Positions 1-11,405 of a stretch of DNA of 11,405 nucleotides are shown piece by piece (positions within the stretch are counted from its first letter, which is position 1; each line of letters starts with the position of its first letter). The translations under genes were made by a program, and so were the position numbers. The stretch is taken from the IMG/VR virus record IMGVR_UViG_648276668_000008, positions 1-11,405 of that record; one strand, written 5' to 3'. Source of the DNA: a virus (Duplodnaviria; Heunggongvirae; Uroviricota; Caudoviricetes). The notes beneath the pieces are model-generated. The model made no database searches. It had not been told where the DNA came from and worked only from the letters and a program-made list of their open reading frames with translations.

Positions 1-253
1 CACAAGACTCTTCTGCATTCGACGGCGGTTCTAGTCAGTAGTAGATGTTTAAGGCGTGGCAGAGACATTTCATCCTTACTCTACGGCATTGGTCCACATA
101 CAAATCGTGGTTGTGACACTTCACTTATCATCAGTGAGCGAACAGAGAATAGTTCAGTGATTTGAGTAATTAACCTGATTAAATGAAGAGGCATGATAAA
201 TGATAATACTCTGGCTTTATCGTTAATTACTTAATTCCACATGTAAGCAATTT

Positions 254-280
254 GCCCGCTTGGCATAGCGGGCATTTTTT
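254..280 (+). terminator. Rho-independent terminator-like hairpin in the left flank, outside the element
   Basis: Stem GCCCGCT (254-260), loop TGGCAT, stem AGCGGGC (267-273), then A + TTTTTT (274-280). Confidence 0.45.
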
Positions 281-466
281 CCAGGTACTTTTGAATGAGT
301 ACTGATGGATAAATACATTGCAGTGGCGTGCCACGTACCAAAACACCAGCCCTCATTCGAAACTACCTACCGCACTGCTTCTTTAAAATGGCGTTAGTCG
401 TGAAATATTGACCGCCATCGAGTCCCCCTTGTAACCTTAACTCTTCCTGATACGTGAATAATGATT

Positions 467-511
467 TGGTGGCCCTTGCTGGACTTGAACCAGCGACCAG
501 GCGATTATGAG
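467..511 (-). repeat. att direct repeat: ~45-nt fragment matching the 3' part of a tRNA (CAU-type anticodon loop through T-arm and CCA); not a complete tRNA
   Basis: Reverse complement reads ACTCATAATCGCCTGGTCGCTGGTTCAAGTCCAGCAAGGGCCACCA (anticodon loop CUCAUAA, T-arm GCTGG-TTCAAGT-CCAGC, acceptor 3' strand + CCA). Sequence 5' of it cannot form a D-arm or acceptor 5' strand. A second CCA-end copy starts at 11392. From memory it resembles the E. coli ileX/ileY-type tRNA 3' half. Confidence 0.7.
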
Positions 512-618
512 TTGGTTGATAACCCTTTACTTACAGATACTTAGCGATACTTTTCAATACCTTAGCATTTTTTAAAACTACTGTATAAATACCTGTATAT
601 ACCCCAAAATACTTCTTT

Positions 619-669
619 ACGGTATCCTATAGGTATCCTGGAACAGAACAAGCGATTTTCCAGGATACC
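619..669. promoter_or_regulatory. Candidate integrase arm-type binding sites: tandem GGTATCCT-ATA-GGTATCCT plus an inverted copy CCAGGATACC
   Basis: The 21-bp block ACGGTATCCTATAGGTATCCT (619-639) recurs exactly at 11324-11344 near the other end. GGTATCCTGG (632-641) has its inverted complement CCAGGATACC at 660-669, about 25 bp upstream of the int start. Confidence 0.5.
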
Positions 670-692
670 AGATCGCTTGGTGGGGTGTATGA

Positions 693-2126
693 GTGAAATT
701 ATTCAGATTCTCTAAAGTAAAAATTGCAGAACTGCCAACGCCGGAACATGGACAGGTCGAATATGGTGATACGGAGGTTAACGGGCTGCGTGTCCGTGTA
801 GGTTCGTCTGGTGTGAAAAGTTTCTGCATTTCCCGTAAGCGTAACGGAAAATTTATTCGTGCAACGCTGGGGCGTTTTCCTGATCTGAGCGTGGATAATG
901 CCAGGGCTAAAGCTATGGAACTCCTTGGCGAAGTCGCCACAACGGGGATAAATCCGAACATAGCAAAGCGCACTAACAACAAGGCCATGATAACGCTGAG
1001 TGAGGCGATTGACGCCTACGTAAAAAATCGTGGCCACCGCCTGAAACCCTCCACAGAAAAACAGTACCGCAGCATATTACAGAATTATTCCGGTGACTGG
1101 ATGGCCCATACCCTCGCCAGTATTTCCCGCGAACGGGTGGAACAACGGCATAAGGCCATCACTGATGGGGCTGTATGGTTCGGTGCTGATAAAACCACGT
1201 TACGGGCTGGGGTTGGTACAGGAAGCAAGGCACAGGCCGATTTATGGGCGCGTGCGCTGCGTGCCGTGTGTCGGTTTGCGCATGATCATTATCGTGATGA
1301 TGCGGGTAATACTCTTTTACCGGATCCGCCGACGCTGGTACTGAGCACTAAGCGCCAGTGGCACGGAACGGTAAGAAAAACGGAACGTATCCGCCTGCAT
1401 GATTTTTCGCGCTGGTTTGCTGCTGTAGCAGCTGTACGCGACCAGGGCGAACAGAAAAGGGATGATATAGCGGTGACGGTATGTGATGCCGTGGAAATGG
1501 CGCTTTTTACCGGACTGAGAAAATCAGAAATTTTTGGCCTTACGTGGGATCGCGTGAATATGGGCGGTCGTTTTTTCTGGATAGACACCACGAAAAACGG
1601 GGATCCGCTCGAATTGCCGATCACTGATACGTTGCGGGAGATGTTCCGCCGCCGGCTGAAAATAAAAAACGCTGATGATGTTCTGGTGTTTCCTGGTGTG
1701 AAGGGCGTTATTCAGGAGACACGGCACATCATAGACCGGATAAGCGCGGCTACCGTTTCAGAGTCGAACGATGAAATGCTCTCCCCTGTACCATTCAAAT
1801 GGCACGATGCGCGCCGGACGTTCGGAACGGTTGCCGAACTGGTGGGTGTGGGCAATTACATCCTCAAGCGCCTGATGAATCACCGTACTATGCGAAGTGC
1901 TGACGTAACGCAGGGGTATTTACATTTTGGTGCTGATGAACTGCTGGAGCCAGCGTCACGGATAGAACGGGCAATTCTGGAACATGCCGGGCTGGTGGAG
2001 AGTAAAAAATCTATTGATGCGCAATTGATGGCGGTCTTAAACAACCTAAGCGAAGAAGAAAAAAGGAAATTAATTTTTTCCTTATCTACAGATGAGTGTA
2101 ACCAGTTATGGCAGAAAGAAAAATAA
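693..2126 (+). CDS. int: Tyrosine recombinase, P4-type phage integrase
   Basis: 477-aa ORF from GTG 693 with GGTGGGG upstream. N-terminus GLRVRVGSSGVKSF...TLGRFPDLSV...GINPN fits the P4-integrase N-terminal pattern. Catalytic-domain motifs: LFTGLRKSE (box I Arg), WHDARRTF (HxxR), GYLH (Tyr). First gene inside the att repeat. Confidence 0.9.
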   Translation: MKLFRFSKVKIAELPTPEHGQVEYGDTEVNGLRVRVGSSGVKSFCISRKRNGKFIRATLGRFPDLSVDNARAKAMELLGEVATTGINPNIAKRTNNKAMITLSEAIDAYVKNRGHRLKPSTEKQYRSILQNYSGDWMAHTLASISRERVEQRHKAITDGAVWFGADKTTLRAGVGTGSKAQADLWARALRAVCRFAHDHYRDDAGNTLLPDPPTLVLSTKRQWHGTVRKTERIRLHDFSRWFAAVAAVRDQGEQKRDDIAVTVCDAVEMALFTGLRKSEIFGLTWDRVNMGGRFFWIDTTKNGDPLELPITDTLREMFRRRLKIKNADDVLVFPGVKGVIQETRHIIDRISAATVSESNDEMLSPVPFKWHDARRTFGTVAELVGVGNYILKRLMNHRTMRSADVTQGYLHFGADELLEPASRIERAILEHAGLVESKKSIDAQLMAVLNNLSEEEKRKLIFSLSTDECNQLWQKEK

Positions 2127-2845
2127 CAACCCCTGATTATATCATTCACCTTTTTATACGTGAGTTATTTACTTACGGTGATAAAGCCTCTGTTGTACGT
2201 ATAATTAAACGATGCTATGACGATAAAAATAACAAAGGGATAGACGGTTTTACAGAGCTTCTTACAAGTGTAGTTGCGTATTTTGCAAAATCAGCGAATG
2301 CTACAGAGGTTTTTCTTTATTTTATTGGCTTTACGACAGAAAATAAAAAGTTTAAACATCCAGAATTTTTTATCCATCAATTACAGCAAATGGATACTAG
2401 AAAAGAATCTTTTTTTCAGATTGAAAACTTGCCACCAGGCGCAATTAGTGCGTTAAATTCGGCAATCTCACTGTATGCAATAGGAATGAGAAATAATGCT
2501 GATAATCTTGTAAAACTTGGAATATACTTGTTAATTTCAGGGCTTTTTGAAGGTTATCATGTGGATTATGTTTGTGATGAAATATCAAAGCAAGCTATTG
2601 CTGAACATCAAAGAGAAAAAGCAAGCAAACCAAGAAATCATTATTACAATGAAGTTATGCACGTAATTAAATTAACGTGGGAAAAGTACCCTAAAGCCAG
2701 TAAAACAGGTTTATTGAACGAGCTTTCTGTTTACTATCATGGGAAAGTAAGTAAAAACACTCTGGATAAATGGATTAAAGAATCAGGAGCACAACCACCA
2801 AGACCTGATAAATATTCTTCGTTTGAACTTGTTCACCCCCAATAG
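2108..2845 (+). CDS. Hypothetical protein; AT-rich cargo gene with no recognisable family
   Basis: 245-aa ORF whose ATG at 2108 overlaps the int stop by 19 nt. Visibly lower GC than the flanking genes. Mostly hydrophilic, no motif I can name. Confidence 0.6.
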   Translation: MAERKITTPDYIIHLFIRELFTYGDKASVVRIIKRCYDDKNNKGIDGFTELLTSVVAYFAKSANATEVFLYFIGFTTENKKFKHPEFFIHQLQQMDTRKESFFQIENLPPGAISALNSAISLYAIGMRNNADNLVKLGIYLLISGLFEGYHVDYVCDEISKQAIAEHQREKASKPRNHYYNEVMHVIKLTWEKYPKASKTGLLNELSVYYHGKVSKNTLDKWIKESGAQPPRPDKYSSFELVHPQ

Positions 2846-2978
2846 CTGGCTAGTGTATCTTAATAGCTGGCTATTAAGGCTAAATAACTGGTAACCTCCC
2901 CACAGCAACTGGCTATTGGGCTAAAAACAAAATACCCATTGATTGATATTTATCACCGTTGTTACTTAGAAGTACACG

Positions 2979-3197
2979 GTGATAGATATGAATTTAAAGA
3001 AATCTGATTTATCAACTGACCGCCTTACACGTGCTGAAGCTGCTGCCTACCTTGGCGTTAACAATCAAACGCTGGCGAACTGGGCCTGTACTGGCAAGGT
3101 AAAAATCCCTTTCCATAAGCTGGGGCGCAAAGTGCTGTATATGCGCACTGATCTCGATGCTTATCTTGCATCCACTCGCAGAACGCAGACGGTGTAA
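2979..3197 (+). CDS. Excisionase/AlpA-type helix-turn-helix DNA-binding protein
   Basis: 72 aa. LTRAEAAAYLGVNNQTLANWACTGKVKIPFHKLGRKVLYMRTDLDAYL fits the excisionase-family HTH pattern. Start is GTG 2979 or ATG 2988. Confidence 0.8.
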   Translation: MIDMNLKKSDLSTDRLTRAEAAAYLGVNNQTLANWACTGKVKIPFHKLGRKVLYMRTDLDAYLASTRRTQTV

Positions 3198-3544
3198 GGG
3201 GGAGTGATGGCACATAAAACAAAGGCGACCGTAGAGGGCCGCCAGTGGCATAACACTAAACTTGAGCATATCCAGAATACCAGGTTGTTGGCTGGTGGGC
3301 AATGCTATCAGTCTGGCTCGATTCGCTGCCATGCCTGCAATGAGCGTATTTTCCTAGAATACTCTTTAAGGTACTTCTCAAGGATAAACGCACATGGTGC
3401 GAATCTCTCCGGTTCATGTTCGTTTACCGCATTTTTGCGTTGTTTTTTCTTGGATGAGGATAATTTCTTTAATGATTTGTCAGTCATCGTAGATACCTGT
3501 AACCCTGTGCGCCACAGTTCACCGCACCACGGCGCTGGTGATGG

Positions 3545-3724
3545 TTACTCCTGCTCTTTGGCCTTGCGACGCTGGCGGTATTCAACTTCTCGCTTTAATG
3601 CTGCTGTTACAAACTGCCCTGTACTTTCACCAGGCATTTTTACCGCCTCAACATTGTTCATAACTTCATGCGGAACCCTTGCCGCAACTGTTTGTGATTT
3701 TGCGTTTACTGCTTTTGTCGCCAT
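3545..3724 (-). CDS. Small ribbon-helix-helix (CopG/Arc-like) putative repressor, 59 aa; below the ORF-track cutoff
   Basis: Minus-strand ATG at 3724-3722 with AAGGGG 8 nt upstream; stop TAA at 3547-3545. Translation MATKAVNAKSQTVAARVPHEVMNNVEAVKMPGESTGQFVTAALKREVEYRQRRKAKEQE shows a strand / helix / G-x-S-T / helix pattern typical of RHH proteins. It abuts the palindromic operators. Confidence 0.6.
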   Translation of the reverse strand: MATKAVNAKSQTVAARVPHEVMNNVEAVKMPGESTGQFVTAALKREVEYRQRRKAKEQE

Positions 3725-3774
3725 GTTGTGTACCCCTTACAAAAAACAAATGCAGTATGCAGGAAAAAAAATAA

Positions 3775-3826
3775 GTGTTCAACACTTGACGTGTTTAACA
3801 CCTGGATTTAAATTGGTGTTCAACAC
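3775..3826. promoter_or_regulatory. Divergent promoter/operator region with three 11-bp palindromes GTGTT(C/T)AACAC
   Basis: Copies at 3775-3785, 3791-3801 and 3816-3826. A sigma70-like -35 TTGACG (3786-3791), 17-bp spacer and -10 TAAATT (3809-3814) read toward the Icd-like gene and are overlapped by the palindromes. Confidence 0.6.
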
Positions 3827-3923
3827 CTTGTTGATGCAAGGTGCAGAAACGACGAAACCCGGCAGTGCGCTAACACTAACCGGGCTTCTAACCACCAACG
3901 ATAGAAAGCGTATCGAGGTAGCT

Positions 3924-4127
3924 ATGAGAAATCATACCACACACCCGCAAGGGCGGGACTCGCACGACCTGAATAAATACATCTGGCGTTTTATCGCCCT
4001 GAGCACCGCACAACCGCGCGTGATTCACATCGTGGCCACCAGCGAACAGGAAGCACGCCAGCAATCCCCGGCTGGCTGCGTGATGGTATTCGCCGCCCGT
4101 ATTCGTCAGGGGGTGTGCCATGCCTGA
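3924..4127 (+). CDS. Icd-like small protein (P4-type host cell division inhibitor family)
   Basis: 67-aa ORF, ATG 3924 with GAGGTA upstream. KYIWRFIALSTAQPRVIHIVATSEQEARQQ...VMVFAARIRQG resembles Icd-like proteins of P4-type elements (from memory). It is the in-frame C-terminal end of the 307-aa track ORF 3204..4127, which I regard as spurious. Confidence 0.65.
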   Translation: MRNHTTHPQGRDSHDLNKYIWRFIALSTAQPRVIHIVATSEQEARQQSPAGCVMVFAARIRQGVCHA

Positions 4128-4440
4128 TATGTCAAATTACCAGTACCTGATTAATCCGCATTTTAACTGTGAGCATGATATTGCTAAAAAGGTTTATTCC
4201 GCTGCGGATGGGGCTACTGACAATATATCAATGGCTGTTGCGTCAATTGGTAGCCTGATGTGGCATGCGTCAGAAAATGAGGAATATGACGAAAAGGCCA
4301 TGCGCATTGATATGGGTAATATCGGTTTGTTACTGGCAATGCTTGGACATTTTGATATTTCGTTACGGTGCACCATTGAAAATGCCACAGATGCATTAAA
4401 TGCTATAAAGAAAGCGAATACTGATTCAAATCGGGGATAA
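4120..4440 (+). CDS. Hypothetical protein
   Basis: 106-aa ORF; AGGGGG upstream; start overlaps the Icd-like stop (ATGCCTGA). Acidic, no recognisable motif. Confidence 0.55.
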   Translation: MPDMSNYQYLINPHFNCEHDIAKKVYSAADGATDNISMAVASIGSLMWHASENEEYDEKAMRIDMGNIGLLLAMLGHFDISLRCTIENATDALNAIKKANTDSNRG

Positions 4441-4446
4441 ATAATC

Positions 4447-4746
4447 ATGAGAACGTATTTATCTGGCTTGACTGCCAGCGGTTATGCACACCCCCAAATT
4501 ATCCCCGGCGCTATTTATCTGGATAAGAACGGTAACAGAGTAACGGTAAAAGAACTGATGTTTGACCGTGTGTATTTTATTCGTGATGGCTATTCATTTC
4601 ATAGTTCGCTGAACGTGGAGATCTTTATTAGCAGATTCAGGCGGGAAATCCCGCTTTCCAGAAATAACCATGTGTCACGTGTGAATGTGGATAAAAAACT
4701 ACAGGAACTGAAAAACATGATTGCCGCGTGGAGAGAGCAGAAATGA
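4447..4746 (+). CDS. Hypothetical protein
   Basis: 99-aa ORF with GGGGAT upstream; its stop overlaps the primase ATG (ATGA at 4743-4746). Confidence 0.55.
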   Translation: MRTYLSGLTASGYAHPQIIPGAIYLDKNGNRVTVKELMFDRVYFIRDGYSFHSSLNVEIFISRFRREIPLSRNNHVSRVNVDKKLQELKNMIAAWREQK

Positions 4747-6560
4747 AAAAAGCGCCAAATTTAAAACACCAGCCACGTGACAAAATGACGGAAGTCATCA
4801 TTTTTGCGGGTAGTGATGCGTGGGCACATGCGAAGCAGTGGCAGGAACAGGACGGGCGACTGGCTGGCGATAACGTGCCTCCTGTCTGGCTTGGAGAGCA
4901 ACAACTTGCCGAACTGGACAACCTGCAAATCGTACCGGACGGACGCTATCGCGTGCGTCTCTATCAGGCGGGGTTATTGCGTCCGGGGCTTGTTAATACC
5001 ATCGGGCAGAAACTGGCAGCGGCAGGTGTCAGGGATGCTGATTATTACCCTGAAGGAATGCACAGCCAGAAACGGGAGAACTGGCGCGAATATCTGGAAC
5101 GTGAACGGGCAGAGCAGGCGGAAAAGAAAAAGGTAGTTGAACTGCCTGTAAAGAAAAAAGAGCGGGTAAAAGACGATAACGCTTCATCACTGGCGCTTAA
5201 CCAGATGGGAGCAAGTCAACGCGGCGAAGTTCTCCTGGCACATTATGGCGGTGAACTGGCGATTCATGCTGACTCTGACACTGTTCACCATTACAACGGC
5301 GTTGTATGGGAGCCAGTACAGGATAAAGAATTACAGCGAGCTATGGCACAGATTTTCATTGATGCGGAGATCAGCTATTCGCAGAACGCCATTAAATCGG
5401 CGGTCGATACCATGAAGTTAAGTTTGCCTGTAATGGGGAATACAGCCCGTAACCTGATTGGATTCAGTAACGGGGTATTTGATACCAGAACAGGTAATTT
5501 TCGGGGGCATAACAAAAACGACTGGTTGTTAATTGCCAGTGAATTACCTTTCAGCCCACCAGCAGAGGGGGAAACACTGGCAACACATGCGCCGAATTTC
5601 TGGAAGTGGTTACGCCGTTCGGTGGCTGAGAATGACCGCAAGGCAGATCGCGTACTGGCGGCATTATTCATGGTGCTGGCGAACCGGTACGACTGGCAGT
5701 TATTCATTGAGGTAACAGGGCCGGGGGGAAGTGGTAAAAGCGTGATGGCGGAGATTTGCACCATGCTGGCGGGTAAGGCTAATACAGTATCAGCAAGCAT
5801 GAAGGCGCTGGAAGATGCAAGGGAACGTGCGTTAGTGGTTGGCTTTTCGCTGATTATCATGCCGGATATGACCCGCTACGCTGGTGATGGGGCAGGGATT
5901 AAGGCCATTACAGGCGGTGACAAGGTGGCAATTGACCCGAAACACAAAGCCCCCTACTCAACGCGTATTCCGGCAGTAGTGCTGGCGGTTAACAATAACG
6001 CCATGTCATTCAGTGACCGCAGCGGGGGGATCTCACGTCGTCGGGTGATATTCAATTTTTCGGAAGTTGTACCGGAGAACGAACGCGATCCAATGCTGGC
6101 GGAAAAAATAGAAGGTGAGCTGGCGGTAGTGATTCGCCATCTGCTTACACGGTTTGCTGACCAGGACGAAGCCAGACGCCTGTTATATGAGCAGCAGAAA
6201 TCTGAAGAAGCACTGGCGATAAAGCGAGAGGGGGATTCGCTGGTGGACTTCTGCGGCTATCTCATGGCGTCGGTAATGTGTGATGGCCTGTTAGTGGGTA
6301 ATGCTGAAATTGTGCCATTCAGCCCACGCAGGTATCTCTATCATGCCTATCTGGCTTATATGAGGGCACATGGGTTTGGTAAACCTGTAACACTGACGCG
6401 CTTCGGTAAAGATATGCCGGGGGCAATGGCGGAATATGGCAGGGAGTATATGAAACGGAAAACGAAGCACGGTTTGCGTTCAAACGTGACACTGACGGAG
6501 GAATCAGAAGACTGGATGCCATCATGTGTATCGGTCACTAATGACGACAGCAAAAATTAA
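4743..6560 (+). CDS. P4-alpha-like primase / replication initiator (D5/SF3-type NTPase); the satellite pri-rep gene
   Basis: 605 aa from ATG 4743 (GGAGAG upstream, ATGA overlap with previous ORF); the frame is open from GTG 4728. Walker A VTGPGGSGKSV and a possible Walker B LIIMPD. Followed directly by the iteron origin. Confidence 0.8.
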   Translation: MKKAPNLKHQPRDKMTEVIIFAGSDAWAHAKQWQEQDGRLAGDNVPPVWLGEQQLAELDNLQIVPDGRYRVRLYQAGLLRPGLVNTIGQKLAAAGVRDADYYPEGMHSQKRENWREYLERERAEQAEKKKVVELPVKKKERVKDDNASSLALNQMGASQRGEVLLAHYGGELAIHADSDTVHHYNGVVWEPVQDKELQRAMAQIFIDAEISYSQNAIKSAVDTMKLSLPVMGNTARNLIGFSNGVFDTRTGNFRGHNKNDWLLIASELPFSPPAEGETLATHAPNFWKWLRRSVAENDRKADRVLAALFMVLANRYDWQLFIEVTGPGGSGKSVMAEICTMLAGKANTVSASMKALEDARERALVVGFSLIIMPDMTRYAGDGAGIKAITGGDKVAIDPKHKAPYSTRIPAVVLAVNNNAMSFSDRSGGISRRRVIFNFSEVVPENERDPMLAEKIEGELAVVIRHLLTRFADQDEARRLLYEQQKSEEALAIKREGDSLVDFCGYLMASVMCDGLLVGNAEIVPFSPRRYLYHAYLAYMRAHGFGKPVTLTRFGKDMPGAMAEYGREYMKRKTKHGLRSNVTLTEESEDWMPSCVSVTNDDSKN

Positions 6561-6572
6561 ACTTATGGAATA

Positions 6573-6797
6573 ACTGTTCACCACTGTTCACCCTGTCATA
6601 AATATCTTTTATATCAGTATATTATAGGGTGAACAGTTATTTATGAACTGTTCACCAAACTATTCACTGTTCACCTTTTTGATTGTTTATTGAGCTTCAA
6701 GGGTGAACAGTGGTGAACAGTTGGTGAATAGTTTTTGTGAAACTGTTCACCCCTTAACATTATGAATTAAAAGAGAAAATATCAAAAGGTGAACAGG
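6573..6797. repeat. Replication-origin-like iteron array: at least 9 copies of ACTGTTCACC in both orientations around an AT-rich spacer
   Basis: Forward copies start at 6573, 6583, 6647, 6666, 6742; reverse copies (GGTGAACAGT) at 6628, 6702, 6712, 6788; degenerate copies near 6658 and 6723. AT-rich stretch 6593-6627. Sits between the primase and the next gene. Confidence 0.8.
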
Positions 6798-6847
6798 TGA
6801 AGGGTTAAAACGCAAAAATTTTAATTTACTGCTGTGAGATAAAGCCT

Positions 6848-7093
6848 ATGACAGCGAAGCACACAAAAAAATCACAATCGCACGCCCTTGATTTGACGGA
6901 ACACTGGTTAAGGGTGTCGATAAAAATCATCGACCGCAACGCCGGGGAAGGATATGCGAAAGCACATCCCGAACTGATTAGCGCATTCATGACAACGGCA
7001 GCTGCAAACTTTGCCACGCTGACAGAACGGGAGATTGCCGAAGCGGAACAGGTGACAACCATCAACGTTAAAACTGGAGAGCAGACAGCATGA
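6848..7093 (+). CDS. Hypothetical protein
   Basis: 81-aa ORF; stop overlaps the start of the SSB-like gene (ATGA). Confidence 0.5.
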   Translation: MTAKHTKKSQSHALDLTEHWLRVSIKIIDRNAGEGYAKAHPELISAFMTTAAANFATLTEREIAEAEQVTTINVKTGEQTA

Positions 7094-7431
7094 CAGCACA
7101 GATAGCGGCTTACGGGCGGCTGGTGGCTGACCCGCAGTTAAAGACCACCAGCAAGGGTACACAAATGACGATGGCTAGTATGGCGGTCCCCCTTCCGTGC
7201 AGCCAGGCAGATGACGGAACGGCGACGATGTGGTTATCCGTCCTGGCGTTTGGCAGACAGGCCGACGCACTGGCAAAACACCACAAAGGCGAACTGGTGA
7301 GCGTGGCGGGTAACATGCAGGTAAGCCAGTGGACAGGCCAGAACGGCGAAACGCGGCAGGGCTGGCAGGTTATCGCAGACAGTGTAATCAGTGCCAGAAC
7401 GGCGCGACCGGGCGGCAAAAAAGGTCAATAG
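7090..7431 (+). CDS. Single-stranded DNA-binding protein-like (OB fold only, no acidic C-terminal tail)
   Basis: 113 aa. GRLVADPQLKTTSKG...WLSVLAFGRQAD...GELVSVAGNMQVSQWTGQNGETRQGWQVIADSV parallels E. coli SSB GNLGQDPEVRY...WHRVVLFGKLAE...[22 protein letters not shown] (from memory). Confidence 0.7.
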   Translation: MTAQIAAYGRLVADPQLKTTSKGTQMTMASMAVPLPCSQADDGTATMWLSVLAFGRQADALAKHHKGELVSVAGNMQVSQWTGQNGETRQGWQVIADSVISARTARPGGKKGQ

Positions 7432-7529
7432 GGCCAGGCTACTGACGCACTGAACAGGGCAAAACAACAGTCGGGGAATGATGATCCGTACGGCGATAAT
7501 ATACCGTTTTAAATTCTGCAAATAAAAAA

Positions 7530-7558
7530 ATGCCGGAAGAAAATAGATTTTCCGGCAT
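7530..7558 (-). terminator. Terminator-like hairpin with a U-run only on the minus-strand side
   Basis: 9-bp stem ATGCCGGAA (7530-7538) / TTCCGGCAT (7550-7558), 11-nt loop. On the minus strand it is followed by TTTTTTTATTT (complement of 7519-7529); on the plus strand no T-run follows. Confidence 0.4.
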
Positions 7559-7729
7559 GCTACATAAATCCCGACCAAAGGAAGTAAATACATTAACACG
7601 AATTATCAGCACTGAAGTTGTCACGGCAGATTTTATACAACATTGCACTTGGTTGCATGTATTCGCATAGCAAATATCGGTGATAGCATATATCCACAAT
7701 TATTTTTAATGAATGCAAAGAGGATGCGT

Positions 7730-8770
7730 ATGGTTGATTTATATTCGCCTGCCCAGCTTGTGCAGGTGGCTAATGCTGAAGATGTGCAAAAAAAATTAAA
7801 TGCGTTGTTTACCAGTTTGTTTTTCACTCGCTCGGTAATGTTTGAATCGAGAGACATTATTCTTGATACGATCGACGATCCAAATATCCCGATCGCGGCG
7901 TTTTGCTCTCCTATGGTGGGCAGTAAGGTTTCACGAGATGAGGGATACGAATCAAAAACAATTCGCCCTGGCTATATGAAACCGAAAAGCAGCATTGATC
8001 CAAATAAGTTAGCTGTGCGCCCTGCTGGTGTGTCACCTGAGCAATACAATGCTTTTGGGGCGCGTAATATTAAAGTTAAACAGGCGATTGTAAATCAGGC
8101 TAAAGCTATTCGTGCACGTATTGAATGGCTTGCTGTTCAGGCAATCACAACGGGGAAAAATATCATTGAGGGCGATGGTATTGAACGTTATGAGCTGGAC
8201 TGGAATATAAAACCACAAAATATTATCACGCAGTCTGGCGGTGCTGAGTGGTCAGGTAAGGATAAAGAAACTTTTGATCCAAATGATGATATTGAGAGCT
8301 ACGCAGAATTTAGTGAGGGCGTCACTAATATCATCATTATGGGCGGTAATGTATGGAAGAAATACCGTTCATTCAGAGCGATAAAAGAGGCTCTGGATAC
8401 CCGTCGTGGTTCTAATTCCGAACTGGAAACGGCCCTTAAAGACCTTGGTGATTCGGTGAGTTTTAAAGGGTATATGGGCGATGTTGCGATTGTTGTTTAC
8501 AGCGGACGTTATACCGACGAGGACGGAACTGAAAAACATTTCCTTGATCCTGATTTGATGGTGCTTGGCAATACGGCTCTTCAGGGGATTGTCGCCTATG
8601 GCGGTATTCAGGATCCGGAGCTAATCCGAATGGGGCTGACTAAAGCCGAACTTGCACCGAAAAACTATATTGTGCCTGGTGATCCGGCTATTGAGTACGT
8701 ACAAACGCACTCTGCACCACAGCCAATACCGGCCCGCATCAATCGTTTTGTTACCGTTCGCATTGGCTAA
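7730..8770 (+). CDS. Major capsid protein, lambda gpE-like
   Basis: 346 aa from ATG 7730 (AAGAGG 6 nt upstream; frame open from 7643). Blocks ITQSGGAEWSGKDKETFDPNDDIESYA and LDTRRGSNSELETALKDLGDSVSFKGYMGDVAIVVYSGRY parallel lambda gpE (ITQSGGTEWSKRDKSTYDPTDDIEAYA; LDTRRGSNSELETAVKDLGKAVSYKGMYGDVAIVVYSGQY). Length is similar to gpE. Confidence 0.9.
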   Translation: MVDLYSPAQLVQVANAEDVQKKLNALFTSLFFTRSVMFESRDIILDTIDDPNIPIAAFCSPMVGSKVSRDEGYESKTIRPGYMKPKSSIDPNKLAVRPAGVSPEQYNAFGARNIKVKQAIVNQAKAIRARIEWLAVQAITTGKNIIEGDGIERYELDWNIKPQNIITQSGGAEWSGKDKETFDPNDDIESYAEFSEGVTNIIIMGGNVWKKYRSFRAIKEALDTRRGSNSELETALKDLGDSVSFKGYMGDVAIVVYSGRYTDEDGTEKHFLDPDLMVLGNTALQGIVAYGGIQDPELIRMGLTKAELAPKNYIVPGDPAIEYVQTHSAPQPIPARINRFVTVRIG

Positions 8771-8779
8771 GGGGGAGCA

Positions 8780-9121
8780 ATGGCTACTCATTACACTGAA
8801 CTCATGTCTGGCACTGAAGCACTGGTTACTACGCTGGGGATATTTTCAGCCAATAAAGGGATAATACCTGCGTTTACGCCACTGATGCAGGAAGATGCAA
8901 CTGGTGCGCTAGTGGTATGGGATGGAACGAGCGCAGGCAAAGCGGTTTATGTTTCCGCTGTACAAATCGACACAGCGAAAAAAACACAGGCACAGGTTTA
9001 TAAGACAGGTGTTTTAAATGTTGATGCTCTGAACTGGCCTGAGTCTGTAAAAGAACTGTCGGCAAAGGTTGCCGCGTTTGTTGGCTCAGGTATTTCTGTT
9101 CAGCCGCTGGCTCGTGTGTAA
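8780..9121 (+). CDS. Head decoration protein, lambda gpD-like
   Basis: 113 aa, AAGGGGGAG upstream. TPLMQEDATGALVVWDGTSAGKAV...YKTGVLNVDALNWPE...AAFVGSGISVQ parallels lambda gpD ([24 protein letters not shown]...YKSG...LWPE...AFAGTAISIV). Immediately follows the gpE-like gene. Confidence 0.85.
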   Translation: MATHYTELMSGTEALVTTLGIFSANKGIIPAFTPLMQEDATGALVVWDGTSAGKAVYVSAVQIDTAKKTQAQVYKTGVLNVDALNWPESVKELSAKVAAFVGSGISVQPLARV

Positions 9122-9132
9122 AGGGGGATACA

Positions 9133-9516
9133 ATGCAGAATCATTACAATGACCTTAAGCCAATTGCCGAAATGATGTATCCGGATCCAGCAGTAGAGGA
9201 ATTAAAGGCTATTGCTGACAAAATGCGTTTAAGTGAACGCCTTGTTGATATGAATCAGGTGATGGAAATTACTACCCTTAGCCGTCGCACATTGCTAAAC
9301 CTTGAGGCTCGCGGAGAGTTCCCCGAACGCGTACAGGTTACGGAAGGGCGTAAGGCCTGGTATTTAAGCGAAGTGATCGACTGGATAAACAATATTCCTC
9401 GCGCTTCTGAATATTGCCGCGTACCTGTCCCAAAAAAGCCAGATGCGGCGCTATGCCTCAAGATTGAGCGTGTACGCCGCAATGCACGGGATGGTCGCTA
9501 TAAGTTGATTGGTTGA
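9133..9516 (+). CDS. AlpA-family transcriptional regulator (HTH) with an N-terminal extension
   Basis: 127 aa, AAGGGGGA upstream. VDMNQVMEITTLSRRTLLNLEARGEFPERVQVTEGRKAWYLSEVIDWI fits the AlpA-type HTH pattern. Confidence 0.8.
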   Translation: MQNHYNDLKPIAEMMYPDPAVEELKAIADKMRLSERLVDMNQVMEITTLSRRTLLNLEARGEFPERVQVTEGRKAWYLSEVIDWINNIPRASEYCRVPVPKKPDAALCLKIERVRRNARDGRYKLIG

Positions 9517-9572
9517 TGAAATTAGGGCCCGTTCTGGCTGGCGGGTCCTTTCCGGCGATCCGGTAGGCTACG

Positions 9573-9614
9573 GGGCGGCGACCTCGCGGGTTTTCGCTAT
9601 TTATGAGCATTTTC
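9573..9614. other. cos site: lambda-type cosN (12-nt cohesive end GGGCGGCGACCT) with adjacent conserved sequence
   Basis: 9573-9606 matches the left end of phage lambda as I recall it for 34 of 34 nt (GGGCGGCGACCTCGCGGGTTTTCGCTATTTATGA), and 40 of 42 through 9614, then diverges. It lies ~120 bp upstream of the Nu1-like gene, the same arrangement as lambda cos-Nu1. Confidence 0.8.
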
Positions 9615-9732
9615 AGGGGGCTGGTGGTGGTTTTGTTGTTCGCTCTATCTCTATGAATAAGAAGAGAAAAATACAATCAATACACCAACCTGAAACAGTA
9701 ATTAAGTTGTGGTATCAATGAAATTGCACCTG

Positions 9733-10260
9733 ATGAACAAAAAAAACATGGCAAAAAGTTGCCGTGTAAGCGCCACTGCGTTTGATAAGTGGGGAGTGAT
9801 TCCCGTCGAGCGTAAGGGCCGTGAGGCATTCTATGATGTTGCCAGTGTAATAGATAATCGGGTTAACAATGCAATTAGCCAGATTACAAACGAAACGGGC
9901 GATATTGATGACGATGAACTTTTACGCGTCAGGATCAGATTACTGACAGCACAGGCAGAGGCGCAGGAGCTTAAAAACGAGCGCGAACGCGGCGACGTTA
10001 TTGATACAGAGTTTTGTATGTATGTTCTTTCCAAACTGGCGAGTCAGATTTCATCTATCATGGACAGCCTGCCGCTTACCATGCAAAGGCGCTTCCCACA
10101 GATGACTCCGGCTATGCTGGATGGACTTAAAAAGGAAGTGGCTAAAGCCTGTAATGCCAGTGCCGGAGTTGACGACAACCTCCCGCAGATACTGGCTGAT
10201 TACCTGATGGAAACTACCGGAAATGTGCCGGATAAGTTGCAGCCGAATAAAGACAAGTAA
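9733..10260 (+). CDS. Terminase small subunit, lambda Nu1-like
   Basis: 175 aa from ATG 9733 (frame open from GTG 9709). RLLTAQAEAQELKNERERGDVIDTEFCMYVLSKLASQISSIMDSLPLTMQRRFPQ parallels lambda Nu1 RLTRAQADAQELKNARDSAEVVETAFCTFVLSRIAGEIASILDGLPLSVQRRFPE. The N-terminal region (NKKNMAKSCRVSATAFDKW) also aligns with the Nu1 N-terminus. Confidence 0.85.
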   Translation: MNKKNMAKSCRVSATAFDKWGVIPVERKGREAFYDVASVIDNRVNNAISQITNETGDIDDDELLRVRIRLLTAQAEAQELKNERERGDVIDTEFCMYVLSKLASQISSIMDSLPLTMQRRFPQMTPAMLDGLKKEVAKACNASAGVDDNLPQILADYLMETTGNVPDKLQPNKDK

Positions 10261-10271
10261 CGTAGCGCACT

Positions 10272-10556
10272 ATGACAGAATCTGAATTGCTGGGATTAAT
10301 CCGCCGCGTTACCGGAATCAAACAACCATCAAGCAAACAGGAGGCCACGCAGCCGGACAGCGTGATAGCCGAAAATTACGCGCGTGTGGTGGCTGAGATG
10401 ATGCGCCGTGACGGTATCGAGCTTAACGGCGTGGATATGCGCGACATACGGATCAGAGTCCTTGAGTTGCTGGCATACCGTCGCCGTTCTCAACAACGGA
10501 GGGAGAGCGCGAAAAATACTTACCAGTGGAGGAAGCCGGAACGGTTGCGGCGGTAG
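10272..10556 (+). CDS. Hypothetical basic protein downstream of the small terminase gene; possible packaging accessory
   Basis: 94-aa ORF with an Arg-rich C-terminus and weak RBS. Sits where a large terminase would be expected, but is far too small to be one. Confidence 0.5.
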   Translation: MTESELLGLIRRVTGIKQPSSKQEATQPDSVIAENYARVVAEMMRRDGIELNGVDMRDIRIRVLELLAYRRRSQQRRESAKNTYQWRKPERLRR

Positions 10557-11345
10557 ATTCCTGATATTCAGGAAAACCACGAATCTGTGGGGTTTACTGG
10601 CGCGGTTACGGCGGTGACACGCACCGAGGCAGAACAATTACCGTAGGTTAAAGCGACAGTATTCACACCAAAGGCAGAAATTAGCGGTTAACGTAACTGA
10701 CTGATATTTTCGGGAACAGCCAACGGCTGAGGCCGGAGCTATAAAAATAGCTTTGGGTACAGTCCTCAGTTTTGAGGGATGTTAACCAACTGAATAATAA
10801 GCAAAGCTCAAAATTGAGTTTTGTATCTGCCTGAGTTATTTCTGTGCTAACTTGCTGATATTCCCGATAACGCAAAATTGCGTTGGCTGGTGGGTGAGTT
10901 GCAGATCTGCAACTCGACCATGAAATTACGGAAACTACCCGTAGTTTGGGTAGTAAGAGCAACACCCAGATTTTGGGGCTTACTCGCGATACCCAAATAC
11001 AGGGGATCGGTGGAAGAAATATCGTTTCTCATATGTGAGTACCGAGGGCGGAATTCCGCCTTCGGTTACTTATTGTGCTCATGCACAGGGAGGGGCGGGT
11101 CAAATCTCTGTACCCTGACGTCTTCCGGACTGCCAGCCCCATCGATTTTTTATACCCGCGAAAAATGAAAAACGCTTCACGCTGGTGGGTCTGATGCCGA
11201 TATGGGGATCCACATAACGGATTATCCGTGATCATCGACCAGCTATCATGTCGGATAGTTAAAGTTTCATGACAGGTATGATGTTGCGTAACTTGTTGTT
11301 TTTATACCTGCTTATACTCTGTCACGGTATCCTATAGGTATCCTA

Positions 11346-11383
11346 GAAAAAACGAAGGGGTCACGCTGTTAACGTAACCCCTT
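11346..11383 (-). terminator. Rho-independent terminator for the minus-strand tRNA
   Basis: Minus-strand hairpin AAGGGGT-(15 nt)-ACCCCTT (11355-11383) followed by CGTTTTTTCT; begins 8 nt downstream of the tRNA CCA end. Confidence 0.65.
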
Positions 11384-11391
11384 GATAGATA

Positions 11392-11405
11392 TGGTGGCCC
11401 CTGTT
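11392..11405 (-). tRNA. 3' end of a tRNA gene, truncated by the window edge; integration target
   Basis: Reverse complement of 11392-11405 is AACAGGGGCCACCA, which differs at two positions from the CCA end of the 467-511 repeat (AGCAAGGGCCACCA). A terminator follows on the minus strand. Confidence 0.5.

Follow-up and report, generated by a model that had tools for sequence, protein, structure and literature searches.

The 11,405-nucleotide stretch of DNA analyzed here (positions 1 to 11,405 of IMG/VR record IMGVR_UViG_648276668_000008, recorded as a virus of the Caudoviricetes; hereafter the window) is, in our assessment, probably a phage-inducible chromosomal island (PICI), complete and integrated at a tRNA-Ile gene, of the same type as Escherichia coli EcCIIHE3034. 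The locus under study, in which a gene for a small terminase subunit (TerS) is followed by an open reading frame (ORF) for a basic protein of 94 residues, would be the packaging module of this island. Within it, TerS most likely binds the island's own cosB and recruits the gpA-type large subunit (TerL) of a helper phage directly.

The island measures approximately 10.9 kb between its att copies. Its genes follow the core order of Gram-negative PICIs, with an integrase, AlpA-type regulator, primase-replicase, capsid-morphogenesis homolog, and terS identified by Pfam and PHROG profiles, and terS is a component of the core set by which SatelliteFinder defines Proteobacterial PICIs. In size it falls within the classical PICI range of about 10-15 kb, and it lacks tail, lysis, portal, and TerL genes, as classical PICIs do. 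Among the main ORFs scanned against Pfam and PHROG, no phage structural genes were found besides one gpE-like and one gpD-like gene. The original prediction, made from the sequence of the window, reasoned that a lone small terminase must either work with a helper's large subunit or act as a specificity-switching or decoy subunit. This is established PICI logic: terS is a core gene in SatelliteFinder, and EcCIIHE3034 has been named as a TerS-encoding E. coli island (Fillol-Salom et al. 2018, PMC6092414). An orphan TerS is a PICI hallmark, the island is closely related to one already published, and existing PICI biology explains its TerS.

A full-length Nu1-family TerS beside a lambda-type cos site

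The terS ORF spans 9709..10260 on the plus strand, with ATGs in frame at positions 9718 and 9733. In RefSeq records of near-identical islands the gene begins at the counterpart of 9718, which here gives a gene at 9718..10260 and a product of 180 residues; the alternative start at 9733, used in the original prediction, gives 175. Translated from 9733, the protein matches the Pfam family Phage_Nu1 (PF07471) over profile positions 34-162 of 164 (E 1.1e-24), and it matches phrog_57, "terminase small subunit" (E 1.7e-52). By BLASTP it is 48% identical to gp1 of phage N15 (E 1e-55) and 35% identical to lambda Nu1 (E 2e-35), and both alignments extend from the winged helix-turn-helix (HTH) region and stop a few residues short of the Nu1 and gp1 C-termini. 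TerS is thus a full-length member of the Nu1/N15 gp1 family. Its closest phage relative among 50,697 phage records is N15 gp1, at 48% identity at most. Near copies of terS are present in 759 of 5426 complete E. coli genomes.

Judged by these alignments, TerS should possess both functional ends of a Nu1-family protein. Residues 5-45 align with the DNA-binding domains of N15 gp1 and lambda Nu1, indicating a predicted N-terminal winged-HTH DNA-binding domain. The aligned part also takes in the C-terminal 40 residues, which bind TerL in lambda, where the last ~40 residues of TerS are the proposed TerL-binding domain (PMC9026076); a putative TerL-binding segment is therefore retained. A phmmer search against all PDB chains returned no chain below E 0.38, with two weak matches to unrelated proteins. 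The gene sits directly 3' of cosN-cosB, as expected of Nu1-family genes, and departs from the family in a single respect, the lack of an adjacent cognate TerL gene, which is the satellite condition. The original prediction that the window has no large terminase holds: only the integrase and primase ORFs exceed 400 residues, and tblastn searches of all six frames with lambda gpA, N15 gp2, and the TerL of a capsid-forming PICI (cf-PICI) gave a best E of 2.3. The same prediction placed the Nu1-like small terminase and the 94-residue basic ORF correctly, and both ORFs are real.

Upstream of terS lies a lambda-type cos site (9543..9606, plus strand), which we compared by alignment with the right end of lambda and with the left ends of lambda, N15, and the CFT073 island. 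The cosQ side (9543-9572) agrees with the lambda right end at about 26 of 30 bases by hand count, and GGGTCCTTTCCGG within cosQ is invariant across lambda, the window, CFT073, and IHE3034. The cosN sequence GGGCGGCGACCT (9573-9584) is identical to that of lambda at 12 of 12 positions, and the next 22 bases of the lambda left end are identical too, with divergence thereafter. Between this cosQ-cosN segment, which lies about 130 bp upstream of terS, and the gene itself is a candidate island-specific cosB (9607..9717, plus strand). This segment is unlike the corresponding sequence of lambda and unlike cos1 of the CFT073 island, which uses the Rpp packaging protein, and is common to the window and the TerS-type island EcCIIHE3034. 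Because the window and IHE3034 share one cosB and Rpp-type CFT073 has another, the putative recognition site varies together with the kind of specificity protein. The candidate cosB contains a Chi site (9620-9627) and the motif TTGTTGTT (9633-9640), which also occurs within R3 of N15, mapped to bp 48-60 (PMC9026076).

Several related islands carry a second, inverted cos between rpp or terS and the terminal small gene: EcCICFT073 (locus L003, 3095-3373), EcCIIHE3034 (L013, 11688-11943), and the island at L014 (4688-5000). The window and L002 lack it, and 11 bp alone separate terS from the small gene (10261-10271 in the window). At L001 an extra copy of the small gene, truncated to its 5' part, occupies this spot.

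Proposed capture of a helper terminase

Because they derive from homology and anatomy, the steps of the packaging mechanism are ones we infer. A lambdoid helper phage would induce the island, which would then replicate. Island TerS would bind island cosB through its N15-like winged HTH, and the gpA-type TerL of the helper would be recruited directly through the C-terminal segment of TerS. Helper TerL would cut or nick cosN, which is identical to that of lambda, and fill helper-built heads with island DNA. Helper packaging may fall in consequence of competition for TerL and perhaps of mixing between island and helper TerS.

The components of this scheme have close counterparts in known systems. 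EcCIIHE3034 has the same architecture, with a TerS 90% identical and a terminal 93-residue gene 72% identical to those of the window, and it shares the cosQ-cosN and the type of cosB. It differs in having another integrase and an attachment site near clpS, a hypothetical gene of 137 residues where the window holds an AlpA-like gene, and the inverted cos between terS and the 93-residue gene. N15 gp1 and lambda Nu1 are homologous to TerS over their whole length and are likewise encoded directly 3' of cos, and the short cosB of the window contains the TTGTTGTT motif resembling N15 R3; in those phages, however, a TerL gene follows terS. The TerS proteins of Staphylococcus aureus pathogenicity islands (SaPIs) embody the same concept, a satellite TerS that works with helper TerL and recognizes satellite DNA only (PMC6739421). 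In the SaPIs, TerS is part of a headful (pac) system, whereas that of the window is part of a lambda-type cos system, and by analogy the strategy of the window would be the cos-system counterpart of that of the SaPIs.

EcCICFT073 follows the same plan, with gpE-like and gpD-like genes, a lambda-type cosQ-cosN directly upstream of a packaging-specificity gene, and a 93-residue gene, and its Rpp system shares the aim of redirecting a lambdoid helper terminase to island DNA (Fillol-Salom et al. 2019, PMC6739421). The means differ: RppA has 144 residues, lacks a TerL-binding C-terminus, and forms a heterodimer with phage TerS, and the cosB is different. One alternative explanation of the window, which we regard as rather unlikely, is that its TerS behaves as an Rpp does, forming hetero-oligomers with helper TerS that block recognition of phage cosB and leaving helper TerS to bridge to TerL. 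In its favor, Rpp acts in this way in a sister island whose overall architecture and cos position are the same, and by eye it is in its central segment that TerS comes closest to the small terminases of lambda and N15, which makes mixed oligomers conceivable. TerS, however, has no detectable similarity to RppA (BLASTP E 6.2) and matches no PDB chain by sequence. At 175-180 residues it is also 25-35 residues longer than the Rpps, which span 144-153 residues (PMC6739421), and it keeps the C-terminal segment. Murialdo and Feiss argue that Rpps lack the TerL-binding domain and hence need phage TerS as a bridge (PMC9026076), and TerS retains the very segment whose absence underlies that argument. 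This alternative is partly compatible with direct recruitment of TerL.

A second alternative, that the locus is what remains of the left end of a lambda-like prophage after decay, with TerL and everything downstream lost, is very improbable. It would account for the lambda-identical cosQ-cosN and for the presence of Nu1-, gpE-, and gpD-like genes. The order E, D, cos, Nu1 is nevertheless unlike that of lambda, and TerS is no more than 48% identical to any phage TerS among the 50,697 records searched. The same compact architecture is seen again, its integrase and primase intact, in the annotated relatives examined, near copies of terS are found in the 759 complete genomes mentioned above, and the 94-residue gene is under purifying selection, all of which argue against decay.

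Some observations weigh against our preferred explanation, direct recruitment of helper TerL by an island TerS bound to its own cosB. The IHE3034 island was barely transferred when resident prophages were induced with mitomycin, yielding from <1 to 40 transductants (PMC6092414), and because transfer was so low, no efficient helper is known for an IHE3034-type TerS island. Of the two solutions to terminase capture, Rpp alone has been studied experimentally, and because the related EcCICFT073 uses an Rpp-TerS heterodimer, a heteromer with helper TerS is possible for the island TerS as well. The TTGTTGTT motif of the window lies 9 bp further from cosN than it does in N15 R3, and because of this displacement, binding of TerS at the motif is a guess. 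The second gene of the module, furthermore, encodes a protein that has no homology, fold match, or phenotype tied to it.

The terminal 94-residue gene and its downstream array

The second gene of the module (10272..10556, plus strand) begins 11 bp past terS and encodes a basic, predicted helical protein with 21 Arg/Lys and 13 Asp/Glu (net charge about +8) and a C-terminal Y-x-W-K-K-P-E-R-L-R-R tail. Many enterobacterial satellites have it as their final conserved gene, at the end of the rightward operon. Profile searches, which had been proposed as a check, gave a divided answer: the protein matches phrog_1561 end to end (E 8.8e-49), but no family in Pfam or NCBIfam. Across the family, which comprises 907 database clusters, none of them named, the core is conserved, the tail is invariant or nearly so, and the helix preceding the tail is rich in Arg. 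The ratio of nonsynonymous to synonymous substitution rates (dN/dS) against four homologs ranges from 0.2 to 0.48; the gene is real and under purifying selection.

The distribution of the family is specific. Near copies of the gene are present in 739 of the 5426 complete E. coli genomes, and a scan of one genome per species gave a single locus, in Shigella, which marks the family as narrow. Only 37 clusters, mostly fragments or frameshift chimeras from enterobacteria, came out of an exhaustive phmmer search across 1.84 billion representative proteins; two large matches, to a mucin-like repeat protein and an ankyrin-repeat protein, were rejected as spurious, having aligned through repeats. Phage genomes all but lack the family: the 50,697 records gave one partial match. 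The protein has no sequence match in the PDB, and its predicted all-helical fold has no match in the PDB or BFVD, with no DNA- or RNA-binding fold recognized. A weak match to BrxA (E 0.0027), the sole one otherwise in Pfam, NCBIfam, and PADLOC scans, was taken as chance.

In at least six satellite architectures, a homolog of this gene comes last among the conserved genes. Homologs follow TerS in the window, L001, L002, and IHE3034; they follow RppA in EcCICFT073 and an Rpp-like gene at L014; and at L008 a homolog of 86 residues follows a 175-residue protein with a TerS-like HTH and a AAAAGTGTCAA repeat array. Homologs are also found in ProQ/PerC satellites without a capsid or terminase gene (L015-L017), in an O157:H7 island with a protease-capsid fusion homolog and no annotated TerS (L019), and directly after a complete TerL in cf-PICIs (L007 of Shigella flexneri and EcCIEDL933). 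The gene is 68-72% identical to its counterparts behind RppA in EcCICFT073 and behind TerS in EcCIIHE3034, and some satellites that carry a homolog have no annotated or Pfam-recognizable terminase gene and no TerS or Rpp gene. Because it is the last gene in six differing architectures, the 94-residue gene does not belong to the terminase, and its product is neither a TerL surrogate nor a partner specific to TerS. The original prediction had noted that the ORF occupies the position of a large terminase gene, which is the case only in this window, since the homolog follows a real TerL in EcCIEDL933 and in the S. flexneri element; nor does a role as TerL stand-in fit a homolog that also closes satellites without a TerS or Rpp gene.

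The five AAAAGTGTCAA copies at L008 (5760-6000) occur in both orientations, with no lambda cos, between the 175-residue HTH protein and the 86-residue homolog, and may be a packaging-recognition array of another satellite type. At L015 (5834-6226), and likewise at L016 and L017, a homolog of the Q antiterminator (Pfam E 6.6e-50) follows the terminal gene and its hairpin array.

Approximately 840 bp without annotated genes separate the 94-residue gene from the 3' end of tRNA-Ile, and the ~0.5-0.9 kb that follow the gene travel with it across islands with different integrases and packaging genes. Such arrays are found at L003 (3650-4200), L008 (6256-7130), L013 (12220-12900), L015 (5313-5830), and L020 (39758-40600). 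Each array unit opens with a box, TAAC-N3-4-(T/C)TGAT(A/T), and continues with a short hairpin whose loop is A/T-rich; a Chi or near-Chi sequence often comes next. The box is the reverse complement of the integration host factor (IHF) consensus WATCAANNNNTTR. Exact matches to this consensus, in one orientation, occur at 1-7/kb in the arrays versus 0-0.2/kb elsewhere in the same loci, and the stop codon of the 94-residue homolog is where the first match begins in six loci. In the window the conserved region (10554..11353, plus strand) contains three boxes (10554, 10694, 10848), each one base off the IHF consensus, together with short hairpins whose stems vary and Chi sites at 10886 and 11181. 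In many E. coli genomes it is the third unit that directly adjoins the stop codon, so array units are gained and lost.

In the window, L007, and L008, hairpins with stems of >=6 bp are ~3-4x commoner than in shuffles. Over 20 units, some of which were picked because a hairpin was visible, 74% of cells pair versus 56% in shuffles, and the covariation score is 0.47 versus 0.17, a value reached by 0 of 500 shuffles, with slid controls much lower. The hairpins are thus kept by compensatory changes on both sides of the stem. Rfam had no match to the whole window or to the downstream region. A role of the TAAC boxes as in-frame stop-codon modules was rejected, as their frame is inconsistent across loci by hand count of box positions. 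Integrase arm sites are also unlikely because the boxes are common to islands with different integrases; a different repeat, GGTATCCTATAGGTATCCT (620, 11327), flanks both att arms.

Our best guess, held tentatively, is that the 94-residue protein is a small nucleic-acid-binding accessory factor that aids satellite transfer. One candidate substrate is the array itself, which the protein might bind, perhaps through its Arg-rich C-terminal part, for regulation or for the protection or organization of DNA. Gene and array travel together among islands whose integrases and packaging modules differ, the first box overlaps the stop codon of the gene in most loci, and the near-invariant tail and the Arg-rich helix before it would suit such contacts. 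This is pure association, however, with no DNA- or RNA-binding fold recognized in the protein, no Rfam family for the array, and boxes in the window that are one base off the IHF consensus, and we consider array binding rather unlikely. A resemblance of the Arg-rich segment to the arginine-rich motif of lambda N was given no weight. The original prediction pointed elsewhere, to a faint likeness, which it called weak, between lambda gpFI and the first residues and a later AEMMRRDG stretch of the protein. On such a reading the protein would be a packaging chaperone like gpFI, or else an adaptor that replaces part of TerL for the orphan TerS. The position of the ORF 11 bp after terS, and of its homologs behind packaging genes in several architectures, could be taken in this sense, as could a mutant phenotype in EcCIEDL933. 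The likeness to gpFI comes down to a shared N-terminal MT-x-x-EL and a QPD(S/T)VI peptide, nothing more: BLASTP against lambda FI gave 8- and 13-residue matches only (E 0.06 and 0.9), tblastn with lambda FI misses the ORF, none of 34 members of the family matched a packaging family in Pfam, and the predicted fold has no significant PDB match. With neither sequence, profile, nor fold searches in its support, homology to gpFI was rejected, and we regard a chaperone or adaptor of this kind as quite doubtful.

The mutant in question is one of "hypothetical gene 1792" in the packaging module of EcCIEDL933, and its transfer was severely reduced (Alqurainy et al., bioRxiv 10.1101/2022.09.08.507074). 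That island, described in the same study, is a cf-PICI with its own capsid, portal, HNH, P27-type TerS, and TerL, in which the homolog of the 94-residue gene follows a real TerL as the last gene and is itself followed by the same kind of box array. Its module (L020) contains two hypothetical genes, both candidates for gene 1792: one of 60 residues between hnh and terS (37159-37341) and the 93-residue homolog after terL (39480-39761; RefSeq WP_000133425.1). In EcCICFT073, genes downstream of the origin have been overexpressed singly, with rppA alone blocking lambda, and inclusion of the 93-residue gene was not stated (PMC6739421). We speculate, with low confidence, that the 94-residue protein and the array that starts at its stop codon form a conserved satellite-specific "right-end module", perhaps needed for efficient transfer. 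Such a module, common to classical PICIs, Rpp-type PICIs, cf-PICIs, and terminase-less satellites, could conceivably underlie the gene 1792 phenotype, and, on an equally uncertain footing, might organize or protect satellite DNA or its transcript.

Island anatomy, Chi content, and implications

The left boundary of the island is attL (465..510, minus strand), a duplicated 3' part of tRNA-Ile whose sequence TGGTGGCCC recurs at 11392; the boundary is fixed because matches to related islands in E. coli genomes start at 464/467. The right boundary is the attR core (11392..11405, minus strand), the 3' end of tRNA-Ile, and the window stops inside this gene; the same sequence at L001 runs into an annotated tRNA-Ile. 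Just downstream of the tRNA gene, in island DNA, is a terminator-like hairpin followed by a T-run (11355..11383, minus strand), suggesting that the island supplies the tRNA-Ile terminator after integration. The direct repeat GGTATCCTATAGGTATCCT lies at 620-641 and 11327-11348, one copy on each side of the att core, and its copies are candidate arm-type sites for the integrase.

The remaining genes are on the plus strand except where noted. A tyrosine integrase (693..2126; Pfam Phage_integrase and Arm-DNA-bind_3) is followed by an ORF of 245 residues (2108-2845) with no match in Pfam, NCBIfam, or PADLOC, in a spot where PICIs often hold accessory or defense genes. A small HTH regulator or excisionase-like gene (2979..3197; phrog_66 and related excisionase/regulator families; an HTH protein in the annotation of L001) occupies the alpA position, and a YlcI/YnfO-family gene on the opposite strand lies between it and the D5-type primase/helicase, pri-rep (4728..6560; Pfam D5_N, DUF5906, and Pox_D5). 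A single-stranded DNA-binding protein (SSB) gene follows (7090..7431; Pfam SSB, E 2.6e-16). The PICI "capsid morphogenesis" gene is a homolog of the lambda major capsid protein gpE (7730..8770, its start following the RefSeq annotation of L001; Pfam Phage_cap_E, 4.8e-41; phrog_29, 1.7e-91) and precedes a homolog of the head decoration protein gpD (8780..9121; Pfam HDPD, 3.8e-15; phrog_49). A second AlpA-family HTH protein (9133..9516; Pfam Phage_AlpA, 9.3e-09; phrog_2790, 8.8e-49) stands before cos.

Satellites related to the window are also found as insertions within the morphogenesis genes of lambdoid prophages. Those at L002 (NZ_CP032892.1, 800-12460) and L019 (NZ_CP038416.1, 3226-15778) split a portal gene in one case and a large terminase gene in the other, and a packaging gene of a potential helper is thereby disrupted.

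Chi octamers (GCTGGTGG) are abundant in the window, with 10 copies versus 0.4 expected from shuffles (1991, 3291, 4036, 5556, 6239, 7119, 7145, 9620, 10886, 11181), 7 of them on the gene strand. Six related satellites, including those at L001, L002, L013, L019, and L020, contain 66 Chi in 68.6 kb (0.96/kb), of which 42 lie on the gene strand and 24 on the opposite strand, compared to 8 in some 101 kb of DNA flanking them at these loci (0.08/kb). The average for E. coli is about 0.2/kb, and Chi is enriched roughly 4-fold or more in these satellites. In lambda, RecBCD enters the cos-cut molecule at its free right end, and because of this point of entry the majority orientation would be the active one. 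The excess may protect a satellite without a recognizable Gam from RecBCD. A limited literature search found no paper reporting Chi enrichment in PICIs.

E. coli PICIs with the same body plan thus capture the lambdoid terminase by two unrelated solutions, Rpp in some islands and a full-length N15-like TerS in others. Rpp is thought to reach TerL via phage TerS, whereas the N15-like TerS should bind TerL itself. Both kinds of island end in the same small gene, which has never been named, is common to satellite families with completely different packaging, and is essentially absent from phage genomes.

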